Positions 13,831 through 49,030 of a stretch of DNA of 64,000 nucleotides are shown here, in pieces (positions within the stretch are counted from its first letter, which is position 1; every line of letters begins with the position of its first letter). The position numbers and the translations under genes were made by a program. Where the stretch lies: IMG/VR virus record IMGVR_UViG_3300030090_007212, positions 74,503-138,502 of that record; one strand, written 5' to 3'. Under the pieces are notes generated by a model. That model made no database searches, was not told the origin of the DNA, and saw only the letters and a program-made list of their open reading frames with translations. This DNA comes from a virus.

Positions 13831-15780
13831 TTAAGAATCGTAAACTTGTTTTGATGTTATAGTACCACCATTTCTATCTTTTTGATTAATAATGTCTACA
13901 ACCATTTTTCTTAATTCTGGTGCTTTAATGGATGCTATTGCACCTGATGCTCCGGTTATTCTTATTTCCCCATTTAAATTAACGTTAGTAGGTGAGGTAT
14001 TGGTAGATGTATTATTAATTGCTTGATTTAATAATTTGTCAATTACACCACCTTTTTTAGCACCTAATACGTCATCTTGAGATGTAAAACTACTATGTCT
14101 ACCATCATTCCTTGATAAAAAATCACTGTCAGTATCCGTTGTATTAGGCATAGGTGAAGTTGTATCTTCTATAGTGGTATTAGGACTAATAACTTTTAAG
14201 TCACCGGTTACTTTATCTATTGTAATAGTCTGAGGATTATTAATATCTATTGCTGACCCGCTTAATAAATCTACTATGTTGTTTATTGATTTAGACATTT
14301 CATCGTCAAATACTGCACCTTGACTAAACATTTTTTCCATTTGTTCTGCCAAAAGGCTTTGATCGAAACTTTCTTTTATTTTTTCTAAACTAGTGGTAAG
14401 AGCAGAATTCAAAGAGGATATAGTTTTAACAGAAGACTCCTCCATTTGTCTATACACATCGATATCTTTAACAAATCCCAATTCAAATGCTTTTTCCATA
14501 TTCTGCAATCTTTGATTTGTAGTCTGTGCTTCATATAACATTGATCCCATATAATCCTCTTCGTTTTGAGGTGCTTTCAATATCATTTCTGCATGACCAC
14601 TTGTTAAATCTTCTAACGCCTTAGTTTGTTTTTCACCATTTTCATCCACAAAATCTACTACCATTTGTCCATCTTGCATTCTCGCCATATTACCAATACC
14701 CTCCATTTCTTCATCAGTAAACATCCCTTTACTTGATAATAATGTTTTAGCATCATTTAATTTGGCTGTTTGACGAGCCATTTCAGTCATTTTTTGAACA
14801 TCAATACCTAATTGATCACCTGCGGATTTTAATTGCATTCTGGCTTCTGCGGGTAATTCATATTCACCTGTTACCTCATTAAATTGTAACATGTTTTCTG
14901 TCATATCCGACAACCTTTTTGCTAATTCTTCTGGTTTATTTCGGGCTAAATACATAGTTTCGAAAGGATCACCAAACGCTTCTGCTATATCTCCCCCTAA
15001 CATTTGTAAATTCGCTGCTGCCTCAATTGCTGCTTCAGGTTGGTAAAATTTATCTGCCATTCCAATAACATCGGCAATATCCAATCTCATTTTAACTGCT
15101 TGTTTTGCCATTTCAGTCATACCTTTAACTCCATTAGCAAAAGAATATGACTGGAGAGAATTCATATTTTTTGATAATTCTTTCATCACTTTAGACGAAT
15201 TTAACCCTATTTTCTGTGACGAAATAACTACATCTTCCATACTTTTACTTGCGGATTCATTAGAAATACCCATCATTTCTAACGTTTCAAATAATTGAGC
15301 ACTTTCTGTACCCATAAGATTAGTTGCTGCACCTAATTTATAGATATTTGCTACCTCTTCTTCACCTAAAATTCTTACTCTACCAGAAGAATCTGCAAAA
15401 TCTTGATAGATAGCTTGCACATCTCCCATATCACCACCAAACTCTTTTATAATTGCAGCAGCACCTTTAAATTGGGTACTTAAATCTGCCGTGCGGTGTA
15501 CAGATAAACCTATACTTATGGAAGTTTCTTTATATTTTTCCGCTAATTGTTCAGCTAACTTATATTGTCTACCGGTGTCGTAGGTAAACTCTTTCATACT
15601 TTTCACCATACTAGACACCGTATCTTTATAGTCTTTTAGAATATTTTTACTCTTACCAATATTAGAACTGAAGTTTTCCGCCTCTCTATTAAGGTTTTTC
15701 ATATCAACCCTTAACTGATCGATTTCGGCTCTTAAAATTTTTATCTGTTCATCAGGTGGTAAAGTATCAAATGCTGCCAT
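13831..15780 (-). CDS. Tape-measure-like protein
   Basis: 649 aa, helical and A/M/Q-rich, located between the tail chaperone and baseplate genes. Confidence 0.7.
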   Translation of the reverse strand: MAAFDTLPPDEQIKILRAEIDQLRVDMKNLNREAENFSSNIGKSKNILKDYKDTVSSMVKSMKEFTYDTGRQYKLAEQLAEKYKETSISIGLSVHRTADLSTQFKGAAAIIKEFGGDMGDVQAIYQDFADSSGRVRILGEEEVANIYKLGAATNLMGTESAQLFETLEMMGISNESASKSMEDVVISSQKIGLNSSKVMKELSKNMNSLQSYSFANGVKGMTEMAKQAVKMRLDIADVIGMADKFYQPEAAIEAAANLQMLGGDIAEAFGDPFETMYLARNKPEELAKRLSDMTENMLQFNEVTGEYELPAEARMQLKSAGDQLGIDVQKMTEMARQTAKLNDAKTLLSSKGMFTDEEMEGIGNMARMQDGQMVVDFVDENGEKQTKALEDLTSGHAEMILKAPQNEEDYMGSMLYEAQTTNQRLQNMEKAFELGFVKDIDVYRQMEESSVKTISSLNSALTTSLEKIKESFDQSLLAEQMEKMFSQGAVFDDEMSKSINNIVDLLSGSAIDINNPQTITIDKVTGDLKVISPNTTIEDTTSPMPNTTDTDSDFLSRNDGRHSSFTSQDDVLGAKKGGVIDKLLNQAINNTSTNTSPTNVNLNGEIRITGASGAIASIKAPELRKMVVDIINQKDRNGGTITSKQVYDS

Positions 15781-15905
15781 TACTTATTTTTTTGTTTTTT
15801 AATATTTTTATCTATTTTTTGATTCTTAACTTTATCTTTTTTTAAGTTTTTTAATATTTTTTCAAATCTTTCTATTTCTTTATTTATAATTGTTGAACCA
15901 AACAT
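15780..15905 (-). CDS. Small lysine-rich protein (41 aa)
   Basis: Manual translation MFGSTIINKEIERFEKILKNLKKDKVKNQKIDKNIKKQKNK. Starts 1 bp after the upstream stop; its TAA overlaps the tape-measure ATG (TAATG). Confidence 0.6.
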   Translation of the reverse strand: MFGSTIINKEIERFEKILKNLKKDKVKNQKIDKNIKKQKNK

Positions 15906-15906
15906 A

Positions 15907-16374
15907 TTACTTTTTTTTTCGTATAGAATAATTAATAGATTCTTCAGGACCTATAAGTTTTTCTCTCCCTCTTCTATATATTAAAAGACCCTTTTCTCTT
16001 TGTTTTTTAAAATCCTTCAAAGTAGAGTAATAAAGTCTAATTACAAATGTTTTAGGCATACTAGATGTGCGCAAGTCCATATAATTATTATTACCATTAA
16101 CCACTTTAAAATACATTAAACCTTTTAATTTTCGGTCAAAATTTTCAATACCATACTTAGGTAATTGTAATTCAAATTCCCCATCAAAATCAATTTCTAT
16201 ATATGAAAACCCTAAAGAGTTCTTATGTAAAGAACGTTTTAATTCTTGCACCTCATCATACATTTTTCGTAATTGTTTAGACTGTGAGGGACTTTCTTTA
16301 AGTAATAAAGTAATATTATTATTAATTTCTTTTATTAATTTATTATAATACTCTATTTTATCATTAGATTTCAT
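15907..16374 (-). CDS. Hypothetical protein
   Basis: 155-aa ORF with ATATTTATA motif at 16388-16396. Confidence 0.75.
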   Translation of the reverse strand: MKSNDKIEYYNKLIKEINNNITLLLKESPSQSKQLRKMYDEVQELKRSLHKNSLGFSYIEIDFDGEFELQLPKYGIENFDRKLKGLMYFKVVNGNNNYMDLRTSSMPKTFVIRLYYSTLKDFKKQREKGLLIYRRGREKLIGPEESINYSIRKKK

Positions 16375-27983: not shown

Positions 27984-28070
27984 TTATTTAATTTTTTAAA
28001 ATTTATATTATTTTATCTTTATATTATAAATATGCTGGTTTTTATGAAAGTATTTTAATGTTTTAAAATT

Positions 28071-28101
28071 AGTATGACAATTTTCATACTTTTATCATAC
28101 T
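28071..28101. promoter_or_regulatory. Candidate operator (AGTATGA / TCATACT boxes)
   Basis: AGTATGA 28071-28077 and TCATACT 28084-28090 form an inverted repeat; a further TCATACT lies at 28095-28101, just before the RHH gene. Confidence 0.5.
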
Positions 28102-28116
28102 TATATAAAAAAACCT

Positions 28117-28275
28117 ATGAAAAGGACTAAAAATCTAAAGATTACACCTAAAACTCATGAATTACTTAAATCATATTGTGAAGATAATGGGTTAAAAATG
28201 TTCGCCTTTGTAGAAAAAATAATAAGGGAAAAATGTATACCTAAAAAAGATATATATGGTGATGTAGTAAAATAA
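28117..28275 (+). CDS. Ribbon-helix-helix DNA-binding protein (52 aa)
   Basis: Manual translation MKRTKNLKITPKTHELLKSYCEDNGLKMFAFVEKIIREKCIPKKDIYGDVVK. Strand-helix-G-helix pattern of CopG/Arc-type proteins; a terminator follows directly. Confidence 0.75.
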   Translation: MKRTKNLKITPKTHELLKSYCEDNGLKMFAFVEKIIREKCIPKKDIYGDVVK

Positions 28276-28305
28276 AAAAAGAGGGAGATTTCTCCCCCTC
28301 TTTTT
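28276..28305. terminator. Bidirectional intrinsic terminator
   Basis: AAAAAGAGGG...CCCTCTTTTT between convergent genes. Confidence 0.8.
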
Positions 28306-28346
28306 AAAGTGTTTATAAAACTTAATAGATTTACCTTAATAAACTA

Positions 28347-31274
28347 TTATTTTTTAACTTTAGCTTGTAGTGGTGTATAAACAATATCTACATAAGACCC
28401 TTCAGCTTTTATAGCTTTTATAGTCTCATTTAACTCAGCGTGTACCTGCTCGTAGTTGGCTGCCATTGAGCCTGACCATATAGCTGGCATACTTGCTGTG
28501 TTGTAATTATCCCCTGGTCTCCCAGCGAATGTATTATTATCGTTCATTGCACTTGCAAGATATTGAGATAATCCTGGAGCGTTTGGATCCCAATTCATTG
28601 CTTCCTCTAACATGCTGTGATAAGTATCAAAGTCACCACCAGCGGCAACTCCTTCTCTAACATGGTTATAGAAATTAATCATTGGACCATACTCTCTAAC
28701 TAAGTTTTCCAATCCTTTACGACCATTCACATATGATATAAACATTTGGAAAGGGTCAGGACCTAAACCAATACTACCTTCAAAAGTTAACCAAAATTCT
28801 CTTTTGATTTCTCCTTCAGATTTAGGTTCTTCAACTGGTGCATCTATAGGTTCTTCCACTTCACCTTCTTCTTTAATAGAATCTAGTTCCGCTTCCGCTT
28901 CTTTTAATGCCTTGGCAGCTTCCTCACCTTCAACAGCGGCCTGTTTATGCATATCCCTTACAGTTGCAACTTCTGCTTCTGCTTGAGATACCCATTCCTT
29001 ATTATCTTCAGATGGGTCAGCATCATAAGCTTCTTTAGCAGCTTTAAGTTCCGCCTCTACTTTCTCTAACGTTTTACTAACAGAGTCATATTCTTTGTTA
29101 GCTTTGTCAGAAGCAGCTTGCGCCTCTTTAACTTCAGTTTCAGCCTTTTGGATTGCCTCTTTTCTAGCTTCTTCTTCAGCTTTCTTCTTAGCTTCTTCTT
29201 CAGCTTTCTTAGCATCTTCTTCAGCTTTCTTCTTAGCTTCTTCTTCAGCTTTCTTAGCTTCTTCTTCAGCTTTCTTAGCTTCTTCTTCAGCTTTCTCAAT
29301 CAAAGATTTGATATCTTTAATCTGACCTTCCAAAGTTTTCAATGAAGCATCTGCAATTGGAAGAAAAACTCCACCATTATCGACATATTCAGAAATTTCC
29401 TTTCTCTGACCTTCATATTGATTTAAAATAATAAGTAAGTCTTCAACATCCAACTCACCATTATGTTGAGGTGTGACTTCTAAGAACGCAGGAACAGGTT
29501 CAGGAGCCGGAAGTTCAACTCCACTCTCTAACTCTTTAATCTCCTCTTTTAAAGAAGATATTTTTTCCTGAAGTTCAGCATTTTCCTCATCCAATTGCGA
29601 AATTTCGTCCTCAAGAGTTACAATACTTTCTTTACTAGAAGATATGCTATCTTTAAGTTCATCAATTTCAGCTTTTGATTTAGAAATACTTTCATCATAC
29701 TCAACTATAGATTTAATAGTCTCCGCTAAAGATTTTTGTGATTCATGAAGTTCTTTGGAATCTTCCTTTATCATATCCTCTAACTGAGCGAGTTTTGTTT
29801 CCATTTCTAAAAATTCAGGAGTATCTGGAGTTAAATCCTCTTCCATATGTTGTATCATCTTAGCTTTCTTTTCCTGCCTTTGAGCGAGTTCTTGAGTTTT
29901 CATGTCTATAGAATCTTCTATATCCACTTTTTGGTCATTTAAATCTCTTAAATCACTTTCACTCATTGCCAACTCAGTTTCTTTGGCATCTAAATCAGCT
30001 TCTCCATGCTCAACATCGTCTTTAGTTGCTGTAAGCTCATCTTGCTTTGCAGTAAGTTCAGTTTCTACCTCTTCTCTCTTAGTTTCATTCTCTTCTAAAC
30101 TTCCTTTAGCCTTAGCTAAAGCTATTAGGTTTAGTTTCCCATCAACTGGTTGGAAGGGTCCTTCCTGTTCTTTCTTCTTAGCTTCTTCTGCAGCTTTCTC
30201 CCTAGCTTCTTCTTCAGCTTTCTTCTTAGCTTCTTCTTCAGCTTTCTTCTTAGCTTCTCTTTCCGCTTCAACAGCTTCTTTTTCCGCTTTATACATAAGA
30301 ATAGAGTTTTCATAACTTACAGCTTCTTTTTCAGCTTGTTTAACTATATACGACTCTCTCTCCTCATCCTGCATTTTTTCTAAAAGTTTCTCGAATTGTT
30401 CTTCAGACATACCCTCTTCTTTAGCTATAACTATAGCCTCTTCAATAATAGCGTCAGAAAAACCTTCTCGTGCTTCATCCTCAATATCAGATATTCTTTT
30501 TAGAAGAGTTGGTATTTCACCTTCTCCTTCTACTTGCATATCTGCATCAACAATTTTTTGTACTCGAAGTTGTATTTCTTGACTAACTATTCTTTTACGA
30601 GAGCTTTCTATTGATCTACCAACAAATTCTTTAGAAGCCTCTAATGATTCTTCAATTACTTCGTCAATAGACATTTCTGCACCTTTAGATTTAACAGAAA
30701 TTCTTAGTTTTTGCATTGTTTTTGTTCTTATAGCTTCTAACCCTTCTTCAATACCTTCATTTTCTACATCTGCTCTCACAGCTGCAACCAATGATTTTTG
30801 AAGATTATTCACTGCATTAAATGCGGCAAATAAAGTTGAAGATACGTCATCATTTTGGGATAAACGTTTAGACGCAGAAACACCAAAAAGGTCTTCCTTC
30901 TCTAAATTAACCCCACAAGCTTTAACTAAGTTAACTGTTGCAGTTTTTGCATCTTCTACAGAATCTCCATCATCCATGAAACCTTTAACCATTGTAGTTA
31001 CTGGGGAAATATTCAGTGATATCTCAGTGTGACCTTTAAATACCTCTTTATTTTCCTCACCAGTCCAAACATTGGATCCACCTGATGCTTTGAATGATCC
31101 ACTATACCCTGCAGGTATTGCAAATTCACCCATTGAATTAGTGGTAGTTGTTTCACCAGTTTCAAATTCTATATCTGCACCCTCAATAGGAGCATCCTCT
31201 AATGTTCCTGTATCTCCGGTGTCGTCATCATCGCCACCGTCACCTTCTTGTTCGGCTTCAGTGTTTCCTATGAA
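28347..31274 (-). CDS. Long coiled-coil / charged-helix protein, probably the -1 frameshift extension of 31268..32548
   Basis: The 928-aa ORF frame stays open upstream of Met 31133 to a TGA at 31311-31313, passing through the slippery heptamer at 31274-31280. Contains EEEAKKKA repeats and long heptads. Confidence 0.75.
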   Translation of the reverse strand, partial: FIGNTEAEQEGDGGDDDDTGDTGTLEDAPIEGADIEFETGETTTTNSMGEFAIPAGYSGSFKASGGSNVWTGEENKEVFKGHTEISLNISPVTTMVKGFMDDGDSVEDAKTATVNLVKACGVNLEKEDLFGVSASKRLSQNDDVSSTLFAAFNAVNNLQKSLVAAVRADVENEGIEEGLEAIRTKTMQKLRISVKSKGAEMSIDEVIEESLEASKEFVGRSIESSRKRIVSQEIQLRVQKIVDADMQVEGEGEIPTLLKRISDIEDEAREGFSDAIIEEAIVIAKEEGMSEEQFEKLLEKMQDEERESYIVKQAEKEAVSYENSILMYKAEKEAVEAEREAKKKAEEEAKKKAEEEAREKAAEEAKKKEQEGPFQPVDGKLNLIALAKAKGSLEENETKREEVETELTAKQDELTATKDDVEHGEADLDAKETELAMSESDLRDLNDQKVDIEDSIDMKTQELAQRQEKKAKMIQHMEEDLTPDTPEFLEMETKLAQLEDMIKEDSKELHESQKSLAETIKSIVEYDESISKSKAEIDELKDSISSSKESIVTLEDEISQLDEENAELQEKISSLKEEIKELESGVELPAPEPVPAFLEVTPQHNGELDVEDLLIILNQYEGQRKEISEYVDNGGVFLPIADASLKTLEGQIKDIKSLIEKAEEEAKKAEEEAKKAEEEAKKKAEEDAKKAEEEAKKKAEEEARKEAIQKAETEVKEAQAASDKANKEYDSVSKTLEKVEAELKAAKEAYDADPSEDNKEWVSQAEAEVATVRDMHKQAAVEGEEAAKALKEAEAELDSIKEEGEVEEPIDAPVEEPKSEGEIKREFWLTFEGSIGLGPDPFQMFISYVNGRKGLENLVREYGPMINFYNHVREGVAAGGDFDTYHSMLEEAMNWDPNAPGLSQYLASAMNDNNTFAGRPGDNYNTASMPAIWSGSMAANYEQVHAELNETIKAIKAEGSYVDIVYTPLQAKVKK
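29161..29295. repeat. 21/24-bp tandem repeats encoding (K)KAEEEAK
   Basis: About six units of agcttcttcttcagctttctt(ctt); a second block lies at about 30171-30260. Confidence 0.9.
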
Positions 31275-32548
31275 AAATTTACACCAAAAAGTGTATAAAC
31301 TGCTCCTGAGTCAGTAGCTACTGGAGTAAATGATACTACAGTTTCACCACCTTCTTCGTCATAGTTACATGCATCAACATTTGTTTGAATACCATTAACA
31401 AATAATATTGCAGTTGAAGTCTCAACTTTTCCTTCTACAGAGAAAGAGTATGCTTCACCCTCAACAGCTTCAAACTCACCAGTTGAATGTCTGTAATCAG
31501 TGTTTTGTACACCTGCTCCAGCATTTGCTTCAACTGTATCAGTTAAGTCAGATATAGATCCTTCTAAGTCAGCTTTTGCGTCAGCTAATGCTTGTGCAGC
31601 TTCTTCAGCGTTTGCTTTGATTATAGCATCTTGTGAGTCTTGCTCTTCATCTACTTCAACTTTGAATGCTTTTATAGTATCATTGACTTCATCATGATTT
31701 GCAGAAACAGTATCCGATAGATCAGATATAGCTGAATCTAATTCTTCTCTGTTTTGTGCATCTGCAGCTTCTAACTCATCTTTAGCATCTTTTAATGATT
31801 GAGCAGCTTCTTCGGCGTTTGCTTTGATTGCTTTGTCTTGATCTGCTTGTCCATCTGCTGTTTCATCCATGAATGCTTTTAATGAATCATTGATTGCATC
31901 ATGATTTTCACTAACTTTAGTATCTAAAGAAGTAATAGAGTCAATAATCTCAGTATCCGCTAAGTTATAGGCATCATTTAATTCCTTAAGTGTATCCCAG
32001 TCAACTTCAGCACCATCAAGAATTGCACTAACTCTATCATCTACAGCTTTAACTGAAGCATCTAATTCAGATCTGTTTTGTGCATCTTTAGTTTCTAACT
32101 CAGCTTTAGCATCTTCTAATGCTTTAGCAGCATCTTCAGCGTTTGCTTTGATTGTAGAATCTAATTCTTCTGTTGCGTCAGCTAATGCTTTAGCAGCTTC
32201 TTCAGCGTTTGCTTTGATTGTAGCTTCTTGTGATGTGAAATCTTCATCTACTTCAACTTGGAATGCTTTTAATGAATCATTGATTGCATCATGATTTTCA
32301 CTAACTGTTGCAGTTAATTCAGCATGTTCTTGCTTTCTTTCTGCAGTGTCAGCTTTAGCAGCTTCTTCAACTGCTTCAATCGCCTCTTTTCTTCCTTTAA
32401 TCTCTTCAGAAAGCTCAGCGATTTCATTTTCACCTAATACTATATCAAAATTAAAGTCGAATTTTCCATCTTCATTAAGTTGGATCTCTTTAATTTGACC
32501 AATACCAGGACCTCTTCTTAGAGGATTTGGGTCTTGCATCATCATCAT
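31268..32548 (-). CDS. Acidic coiled-coil fibre/whisker-like virion protein
   Basis: 426 aa. Three repeats of VSENHDAINDSLKAF...IKANAEEAA, ILDGAEVDWDTLKEL motif seen in phage fibres, small C-terminal beta domain (LFVNG). Confidence 0.75.
   Translation of the reverse strand: MMMMQDPNPLRRGPGIGQIKEIQLNEDGKFDFNFDIVLGENEIAELSEEIKGRKEAIEAVEEAAKADTAERKQEHAELTATVSENHDAINDSLKAFQVEVDEDFTSQEATIKANAEEAAKALADATEELDSTIKANAEDAAKALEDAKAELETKDAQNRSELDASVKAVDDRVSAILDGAEVDWDTLKELNDAYNLADTEIIDSITSLDTKVSENHDAINDSLKAFMDETADGQADQDKAIKANAEEAAQSLKDAKDELEAADAQNREELDSAISDLSDTVSANHDEVNDTIKAFKVEVDEEQDSQDAIIKANAEEAAQALADAKADLEGSISDLTDTVEANAGAGVQNTDYRHSTGEFEAVEGEAYSFSVEGKVETSTAILFVNGIQTNVDACNYDEEGGETVVSFTPVATDSGAVYTLFGVNFS
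31274..31280 (-). other. Candidate -1 programmed ribosomal frameshift site A AAU UUU
   Basis: mRNA GUA AAU UUU UCA UAG: in-phase X XXY YYZ heptamer one sense codon before the stop, with a -1 frame open for 975 codons. Confidence 0.72.
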
Positions 32549-34565: not shown

Positions 34566-34581
34566 CTATAAATATTTATAG
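34566..34581. promoter_or_regulatory. Palindromic double copy of the late-type motif between divergent genes
   Basis: Perfect 16-bp palindrome CTATAAATATTTATAG. Confidence 0.6.
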
Positions 34582-49007: not shown

Positions 49008-49030
49008 TGTGTTTTATTTATAAATATATG

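Follow-up and report, generated by a model that had tools for sequence, protein, structure and literature searches.

The ORF1-ORF2 junction

The subject of this analysis is a pair of adjacent open reading frames (ORFs), ORF1 and ORF2, on the minus strand of a 64,000 nucleotide (nt) stretch of viral DNA (positions 74,503 to 138,502 of the IMG/VR record IMGVR_UViG_3300030090_007212; hereinafter, the window), and in particular the junction between them, at which a programmed -1 ribosomal frameshift probably produces a single, long fusion protein (Table 1). In the protein encoded by ORF1, a short N-terminal segment is followed by a repeated coiled-coil region and then by a C-terminal beta-sandwich; profile search with this sequence gave only a sub-threshold match to apolipoprotein-like helical repeats. 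ORF2, as called, begins with the rest of another beta-sandwich and continues with a helical domain, a long coiled coil of low complexity and a globular domain at the C-terminus. The profile searches with ORF2 returned weak coiled-coil-type matches only, and no usable match to its C-terminal 177 amino acids (aa) was found in the ESM Atlas.

Table 1. Features of the ORF1-ORF2 locus and the adjacent tail sheath gene (coordinates are those of the window)
Feature	Coordinates	Strand	Evidence
ORF1, 426 aa, short product	31268..32548	minus	ORF call and translation
ORF1 stop codon UAG	31268..31270	minus	sequence
Candidate slippery heptamer A_AAU_UUU	31274..31280	minus	ORF1 phase, one codon before the stop
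Start of the -1 reading: acidic Gly/Asp-rich linker and first three predicted beta-sandwich strands, no start codon	31134..31274	minus	translation, AlphaFold2 model
ORF2 as called, 928 aa from ATG 31133	28347..31133	minus	ORF call
Tail sheath gene, 939 aa	25164..27983	minus	phrog_23, E 1.9e-63; Phage_sheath_1 and Phage_sheath_1C above the Pfam cut-off

On the minus strand, ORF1 ends with GGT GTA AAT TTT TCA TAG, where the third base of GTA, together with AAT and TTT, forms the heptamer A_AAT_TTT, which is thus in the X_XXY_YYZ phase and lies inside the overlap between ORF1 and the open -1 frame. This frame is closed by TGA at 31313-31311 and then remains open for 987 codons (31310 to 28347), beginning with LRSSLYTFWCKFFIGNTEAEQEGDGG; the first ATG, GTG or TTG that it contains is codon 59, the ATG at 31133. 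A long ORF that lacks a start codon and overlaps the end of the preceding gene is the configuration of a frameshift site. From the coordinates, the fused product comprises 425 + 975 = 1,400 aa, the 975 aa extension being the start-less stretch listed in Table 1 plus ORF2. The first-pass annotation of this DNA, made from the sequence and a list of its ORFs, had described an ORF1 that ends with GUA AAU UUU UCA UAG and contains an in-phase heptamer at 31280-31274, a -1 frame open to 28347 that yields about 1400 aa, and the absence of ATG, GTG or TTG between the TGA at 31311 and the ATG at 31133; all of this agrees with the sequence and its translation, but the distance from the ORF1 stop to the ATG, given there as 135 bp, is actually 134 nt (31267-31134).

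In the AlphaFold2 (AF2) model of the last 111 aa of ORF1 (predicted local distance difference test score, pLDDT, 81), a helix (residues 2-28) is followed by a beta-sandwich, the final strand of which (98-110) reaches the slip site. Accordingly, if this model is correct, the shift would fall exactly at a domain boundary.

Coding in the gap upstream of the called ORF2 start

One alternative to a frameshift is that the ATG at 31133 is a real start, ORF2 (928 aa) is an independent gene and the open frame upstream is a relic. This ATG is the first canonical start in the frame and the choice of the gene callers in the related proteins P0002-P0006. However, among the 40 ORF starts examined in the window, it looks least like a real start: it is preceded by 59 open codons, compared to a maximum of 27, and mostly 0-9, in the other 39 ORFs, and the GC content of the 30 nt upstream is 0.37, the highest among the 40 starts (most leaders are 0-20% GC). 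The open frame upstream of this ATG is a stronger signal than the heptamer.

The structure predicted for the -1 product also argues against initiation at 31133. The AF2 model of its first 240 aa, built with a 19-row alignment, has a pLDDT of 87.3 and a predicted template modelling score (pTM) of 0.83. Residues 1-18, which make up the linker immediately after the slip site, are predicted to be disordered (pLDDT <50); three strands (21-26, 29-37 and 42-44) precede Met48, which corresponds to the ATG at 31133, and three more (50-53, 60-68 and 78-82) follow it, succeeded by the helical domain. Because three of the six strands of this confidently predicted sandwich precede Met48, initiation at 31133 would delete half of it. 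The sub-threshold match of the sandwich to the Pfam family CarboxypepD_reg (PF13620) covers residues 26-55, straddling this Met; the scores, 16.6 bits in the window and 15.3 bits in the related locus L004 (see below), are under the gathering threshold of 32.3, and in Foldseek the sandwich matched transthyretin-like, CnaB and pilin domains only weakly (probability 0.66-0.77, E >0.1), with nothing at E <= 0.001 in the PDB for the model of the N-terminal domain. The likeness of the sandwich to CarboxypepD_reg and transthyretin domains is a resemblance, not membership.

Homologous proteins likewise extend into the gap. A phmmer search of 1.84 billion representative proteins with the first 240 aa of the -1 product gave 22 matches, among which P0002 and P0003 are close relatives called from the same Met. 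In 12 of the 22, the alignment starts at query residues 10-42, that is, ahead of Met48. P0008 aligns from residue 10, and the more distant phage-like proteins (P0017-P0020, P0025 and P0030) and bacterial adhesin-like proteins (P0021, P0022 and P0026-P0029) from residues 13-42. In BLASTP, the alignments start at residue 27 for P0025 (E 8e-12), residue 22 for P0008 and residue 42 for P0027. The pattern of substitutions is that of a coding sequence as well: over the 27 codons before the Met, the window and the related locus L003 share 20 of 27 aa, with 4, 5 and 13 nucleotide differences in the first, second and third codon positions, and the same third-position bias is seen in the 27 codons after it. 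The Met itself is replaced by Leu in all four related loci that include the junction (L003-L006). The gap is therefore shown here to be coding in the -1 frame, with substitutions biased to the third position and homology to both bacterial and phage proteins, and an independent start at 31133 appears extremely unlikely. The earlier reading of the gap as an acidic linker followed by the beginning of a domain with a motif series known from bacterial surface proteins, which the Met would cut, fits these results, given the disordered linker, the three predicted strands on either side of the Met and the adhesin-like homologs that carry the same domain internally.

Conservation of the two-ORF arrangement

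Seven related loci were fetched (L001, L003-L006, L009 and L010); L003-L006 include the junction, and L001, L009 and L010 end before it. In all four junction-bearing loci, ORF2 is in the -1 frame, which opens 19 nt before the ORF1 stop, and contains no ATG, GTG or TTG for 129, 129, 85 and 129 codons. The frame arrangement is thus kept in diverged relatives, which at the DNA level represent two lineages only. The ORF1-like gene ends with ...FGVKSF(L/G)TE* in L003-L006; ORF1 of the window is 28% identical to that of L003 (E 4e-4), in an alignment that runs to the shared terminal FGV, and its homology to the ORF1-like genes of L003-L005 extends to this FGV end. In L003, L004 and L006, the first ATG of the ORF2 frame is located far inside the conserved domain, and the starts called for relatives in protein databases fall in four different places within it. 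The gene order of L004 is the same as in the window (345 aa, 94 aa, an ORF1-like gene of 760 aa and an ORF2-like frame of 1,402 open codons), and its fused form would, by arithmetic, comprise about 2,150 aa.

In two stand-alone relatives, P0025 and P0030, the domain is preceded by a conserved N-terminal segment of about 60 aa of their own and a Gly-rich linker, which suggests that an N-terminal anchor normally precedes the domain. A requirement for such an anchor, which in the window would be supplied by ORF1, is compatible with this observation. No fused single-ORF form is present among the 22 matches from the 1.84 billion representatives, and longer proteins containing the C-terminal domain of ORF1 were not found either, which is weak evidence.

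The conserved parts of the two proteins appear to be combined with variable ones. The N-terminal domain is common among ORF2 relatives and the C-terminal modules differ; in P0006, for example, the N-terminal domain is 84% identical and the distal half is different. The differences among the C-terminal parts look like swapping of distal modules. The protein P0032 is a variant of ORF1 that has a different coiled coil and ends at the same residue as ORF1, and this mosaic structure also points to a modular virion fibre. As a separate observation, the C-termini of P0006, P0010, P0011, P0019 and P0020 share Asp-rich, calcium-binding-like repeats (DTDGDG..D.ID..PNDP) and a ...GGKK tail, and the C-terminal domain of ORF2 in the window is unrelated to this module.

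With tblastn, neither ORF1 nor the -1 product matched any GenBank phage; scans of IMG/VR with ORF1 and with P0020 gave nothing, and those with the -1 product, P0008 and alignment A2 retrieved only L001, L009 and L010. The scan of GTDB genomes produced a single weak match to a bacterial domain (L011).

Integrity of the junction

Another explanation is that a single gene was recently broken in two, by an indel in the T-run or through misassembly, or that the RNA polymerase slips on this run; indeed, the break is in a T5 homopolymer, where indels and slippage occur. Nevertheless, Logan contigs from three other studies (X2 and X5 from DNA, X9 from an RNA library) span 31268-31282 and keep the T5 with 0 gaps. 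Both X5 (six substitutions) and X9 (three substitutions) carry differences from the window and so come from other strains; X4 has no coverage of 31267-31368 and is therefore uninformative on the junction. The absence of indels in these other assemblies, together with the variant P0032, in which ORF1 terminates at the same residue, shows that the junction is not an assembly error, and the check for an indel suggested in the first-pass annotation accordingly came out in favor of an intact sequence, at the level of contigs rather than raw reads. Furthermore, the same -1 arrangement is found with T6 and T4 runs in a lineage where ORF1 is 28% identical, no fused form was detected, and runs of four to six T are shorter than those known to give efficient transcriptional slippage. 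We consider a broken gene or polymerase slippage to be very unlikely.

Apart from the junction, the coiled-coil repeats of ORF1 at 31560-31700 are poorly assembled: the Logan contigs of all four runs break there or 'go back' by 66 or 139 bases, and the depth over these repeats is up to about 270. Assemblies of this region are fragmented by the combination of strain variants and repeats within ORF1.

The slip site and the case for a programmed shift

The sequence at the slip site differs among the junctions: A_AAU_UUU in the window, U_UUU_UUG in L003 and L006, and UCU UUU GGG in L004 and L005, where only the Phe-tRNA can re-pair. The U_UUU tetramer (31277-31274 in the window) is the sole feature common to the window and all four related junctions. 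In Escherichia coli, H_HH.U_UU.Y heptamers are among the most efficient -1 sites (Sharma et al. 2014, PMC4066793), and A_AAU_UUU is assigned to this class by that rule, as given in the main text of the study, only. The same text presents U_UU.U as a tetramer that shifts given a downstream pseudoknot, with values of 0.26-5.6% for six tetramers (PMC4066793). An alternative slip site is possible at 31291-31283, CUU UUU GGU (U_UUU_G, as in L004), which is indistinguishable from A_AAU_UUU by sequence alone.

To assess how often such sites arise by chance, in-phase heptamers were counted in 40 ORFs of the window. Of the 19,782 codon positions, 182 (0.92%) have a canonical heptamer and 44 (0.22%) have one of the E. 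coli high-efficiency class; AAATTTT is present 13 times. The 14-codon overlap is expected to contain about 0.13 canonical and about 0.03 high-efficiency heptamers by chance, so that the heptamer alone is only modest evidence.

Potential stimulatory structures differ between the window and its relatives. In the window, a weak hairpin (-12.7 kcal/mol) starts about 10 nt downstream of the slip site; in L003 and L004, a hairpin of -28 kcal/mol starts 15 nt downstream, in a linker segment that is absent from the window. The latter hairpin (1432-1475 in L003, 3933-3976 in L004) is GC-rich, lies within a Gly/Ser/Asp linker and consists of a 9-bp stem closed by a further 6-7 bp, with one pair retained as G-U in L004; the linker of the window is shorter, and the structure is absent.

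Several observations weigh against a programmed frameshift. No conserved stimulatory structure was found (RNAalifold gave 0 covarying pairs, pseudoknots not having been searched for systematically), and a search of Rfam gave nothing at the junction. A lone in-phase heptamer is not rare in an AT-rich genome, and the canonical heptamer is not conserved, given that two of the four related junctions (L004 and L005) have only U_UUU_GGG; two of the 20 differences between L003 and L004 over 387 nt fall inside the heptamer. The DNA comparison covers only two lineages, with L003 close to L006, L004 close to L005 and about 95% identity between the two pairs, and the ratio of nonsynonymous to synonymous substitution rates (dN/dS) for the gap between L003 and L004, 0.58, comes from 20 differences only and is uninformative. 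Finally, a minority population with an indel is possible because Logan contigs drop rare variants. Thus, the expectation that relatives would keep the junction holds for the -1 arrangement of the two ORFs (four of four loci) but not for the canonical heptamer (two of four).

One explanation is unaffected by the non-canonical slip site of L004 and L005 and by the missing stimulator, namely that ORF2 is translated alone, through reinitiation or from a non-AUG start near the ORF1 stop (e.g., AUA), yielding a protein of about 975 aa that begins with the acidic linker, with no fusion. Initiation of this kind would account for the coding gap equally well, and an AUA in the -1 frame overlaps the ORF1 stop in both lineages (AUAG in the window, AUAA in L003-L006), in the classic AUGA geometry. 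However, the nucleotide alignment places the stops of the two lineages at non-homologous positions, and the AUA overlap may be due to chance because A is expected before UAA or UAG about one-third of the time; moreover, AUA is a very poor initiator. A product that starts in a disordered acidic linker would have no evident anchor, whereas P0025 and P0030 possess an N-terminal segment, and the in-phase U_UUU is retained in all five junctions. Independent translation of ORF2 from a non-AUG codon is thus an unlikely explanation, albeit the least improbable of the alternatives considered here.

The explanation that we favor, a programmed -1 ribosomal frameshift that joins ORF1 and ORF2, is well supported although not proven, and we consider it clearly the most probable one. 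The first-pass annotation had arrived at a canonical -1 frameshift, and the open frame, the coding gap and the arrangement conserved in four of four loci support that reading.

A model for two forms of a virion fibre

The sequence anatomy of the junction, the coding gap, the conserved arrangement and the absence of indels are direct observations, from which we infer a ribosomal shift; its efficiency and the function of its products are treated as predictions in what follows. Under this model, ORF1 and ORF2 would form one translational unit of an uncultured marine jumbo myophage. The two ORFs are probably co-transcribed because the junction contains no promoter-like site, terminator-like site or copy of ATATTTATA (a motif discussed below). 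Most ribosomes would stop at the UAG at 31270-31268 and release the 426-aa protein, with its coiled coil and small beta-sandwich. Some would slip by -1 on A_AAU_UUU, or on its U_UUU core, as the last strand of the sandwich is completed, and would then read through the acidic flexible linker, the transthyretin/CarboxypepD_reg-like sandwich and helical domain, the long coiled coil and the distal globular domain. The resulting long form, of about 1,400 aa, would have the same N-terminus as the short one.

With respect to function, the two products are likely to represent a virion fibre, in a short and a long form derived from one attachment module. The genes adjoin the sheath gene, their products contain coiled coils and an adhesin-type domain, and distal modules are swapped among the relatives, all of which suggests this interpretation. 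More tentatively, and with somewhat less than even confidence, we propose that in uncultured marine jumbo phages of one globally distributed lineage the fibres are assembled on a conserved frameshift joint, at which a coiled-coil anchor is either read to the stop, producing a short fibre or whisker, or extended by slippage into an exchangeable, adhesin-like arm of 1,000-1,400 residues. The C-terminal domain of ORF1 and the N-terminal domain of ORF2 would then be the conserved core, with the distal parts shuffled, and a bare U_UUU would suffice in some strains. In that case, the extension would be the largest known to be added by a frameshift to a phage structural protein.

An immediate consequence concerns annotation: gene callers split this locus in two and start the second gene at the first Met, and the four start positions called among the relatives each cut a folded domain. 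If the frameshift is real, recoding in phages would not be limited to tail chaperones and to the decoration of capsids and tail tubes but would include a structural gene for a very long fibre-like protein, and the locus would be a natural system that sets the ratio of short to long fibres. The allelic series A_AAU_UUU, U_UUU_UUG and U_UUU_GGG could show what is needed of the heptamer in hosts without obvious Shine-Dalgarno leaders.

Genomic context

The IMG/VR record of which the window is a part is 138.5 kb long, with an estimated completeness of 42%. The window has a GC content of about 31% and contains many very large ORFs on the minus strand; no tRNA genes were detected in it. The next gene downstream of ORF2, on the same strand, encodes the tail sheath protein (Table 1), as in the virion structural module of a myophage, which bears out the initial identification of the source as a phage; a family-B DNA polymerase and a tail-fibre-like protein are encoded farther along the window. 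The best match of the sheath protein among GenBank phages is in the Microcystis phage Mel-JY01 (30% identity), and the polymerase is 25% identical to those of Salinibacter phages, the nearest and still distant GenBank phages; given that both proteins match GenBank phages only distantly, the source appears to be an uncultured jumbo myophage. The stretch is present in 20 listed runs from 11 studies, nearly all of them marine, which indicates that this phage is common. The IMG/VR class of the record (G000) is 'provirus'; everything in the 64-kb window resembles a jumbo myophage of the lytic type, and the label may therefore be a classification artefact.

The ORF1-ORF2 pair is located between neck-region-like genes and the sheath gene. 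In Mel-JY01, no such pair is found ahead of the sheath gene; the 343-aa neighbor of the pair is weakly homologous to a Mel-JY01 protein (E 2e-5), and for the other two neighbors there is no convincing match in that phage.

Several additional features of the window were noticed in the course of the analysis. The 363 nt between the ORF2 stop and the sheath gene start (27984-28346), without a listed ORF of >=60 aa, are a long stretch for a densely packed genome and carry one copy of ATATTTATA. This motif is present in 16 copies in the window compared to 8.4 expected, a number reached by 1 of 100 shuffles, and the sites are mostly intergenic, just upstream of genes (e.g., 28025-28033, 34567-34580 and 49019-49027), so ATATTTATA is a candidate phage promoter or regulatory motif. 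The gene leaders in the window are extremely AT-rich, as the GC values of the upstream 30 nt given above illustrate (mostly 0-20%). A 155-aa ORF elsewhere on the minus strand (16374..15907) ends with CGA AAA AAA AAG TAA, with a run of nine A at 15919-15911. From this run, the +1 frame extends over 56 codons, including an ATG at 15905, and its stop codon and the ATG of the following gene (15780) overlap; in the -1 frame, a stop is reached after about 11 codons. The region of this run (15780-15950) might contain a small separate gene or a site prone to slippage.

Comparison with known systems

In phages, -1 frameshifts are described for the tail genes G/GT, the T3/T7 capsid gene 10A/10B, the head and tail proteins of Lactobacillus phage A2 and the Listeria phages A118, A500 and PSA, all covered in the text of the review by Atkins et al. 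(Atkins et al. 2016, PMC5009743). As presented there, the T7/T3, A2 and Listeria cases share with the model proposed for the ORF1-ORF2 junction a slip near the 3' end of a virion gene, so that the same N-terminus is present in a short form and in one extended at the C-terminus, and, as in these cases, the added part opens with a small beta-sandwich. According to the same text, it is the major capsid or major tail protein that is extended in those phages, by either a short tail or one Ig-like domain, whereas here the upstream gene is a coiled-coil, fibre-like one that precedes the sheath gene. At 975 aa in the window and about 1,400 aa in L004, the extension also differs from those of T7/T3, A2 and the Listeria phages in that it exceeds the upstream protein; it would be unusually large for a phage structural gene. 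The terms 'tail fiber' and 'fibritin' have 0 occurrences in the review text (PMC5009743), and in the open-access papers searched we found no description of a frameshift in a comparable jumbo-phage, tail-fibre or coiled-coil gene.

The G/GT frameshift of lambda and most tailed phages is similar in that a -1 shift takes place where the upstream ORF ends, with its position, and not its sequence, being conserved; it gives a fixed ratio of two products. However, G/GT involves a small upstream ORF between the tail tube and tape measure genes, with two parts of about 100-150 aa each, and its products are not in the virion. The pair analyzed here, 426 + 975 aa and directly upstream of the sheath gene, differs from G/GT in position, sizes and domain content alike and does not belong to that class.

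The domain of the -1 product has its closest bacterial counterparts in the adhesin-like proteins P0021, P0022 and P0026-P0029, which share the sandwich and the helical domain (34-42% identity over about 90-130 residues; 39% over 89 columns for P0027 in BLASTP) and all show weak CarboxypepD_reg-type matches. In these proteins, by contrast, Big_5, SWM_repeat or BapA-prefix modules precede the domain, which is embedded in a single ORF, and no frameshift is involved.

A functional parallel comes from Orsay virus, where, as described in PMC5344674, a protein anchored in the virion acquires, through a frameshift, a long fibre that comprises a helical bundle and a distal head, and the resulting CP-delta fusion is proposed to be a cell-attachment fibre. 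Orsay virus is a nematode RNA virus in which the capsid protein serves as the anchor, and its fusion is unrelated in sequence to the proteins analyzed here. The mechanism proposed for the ORF1-ORF2 junction is of the known type of phage -1 frameshifts, and the difference from the capsid and tail decoration cases lies in the nature of the extended gene and in how long the extension is.

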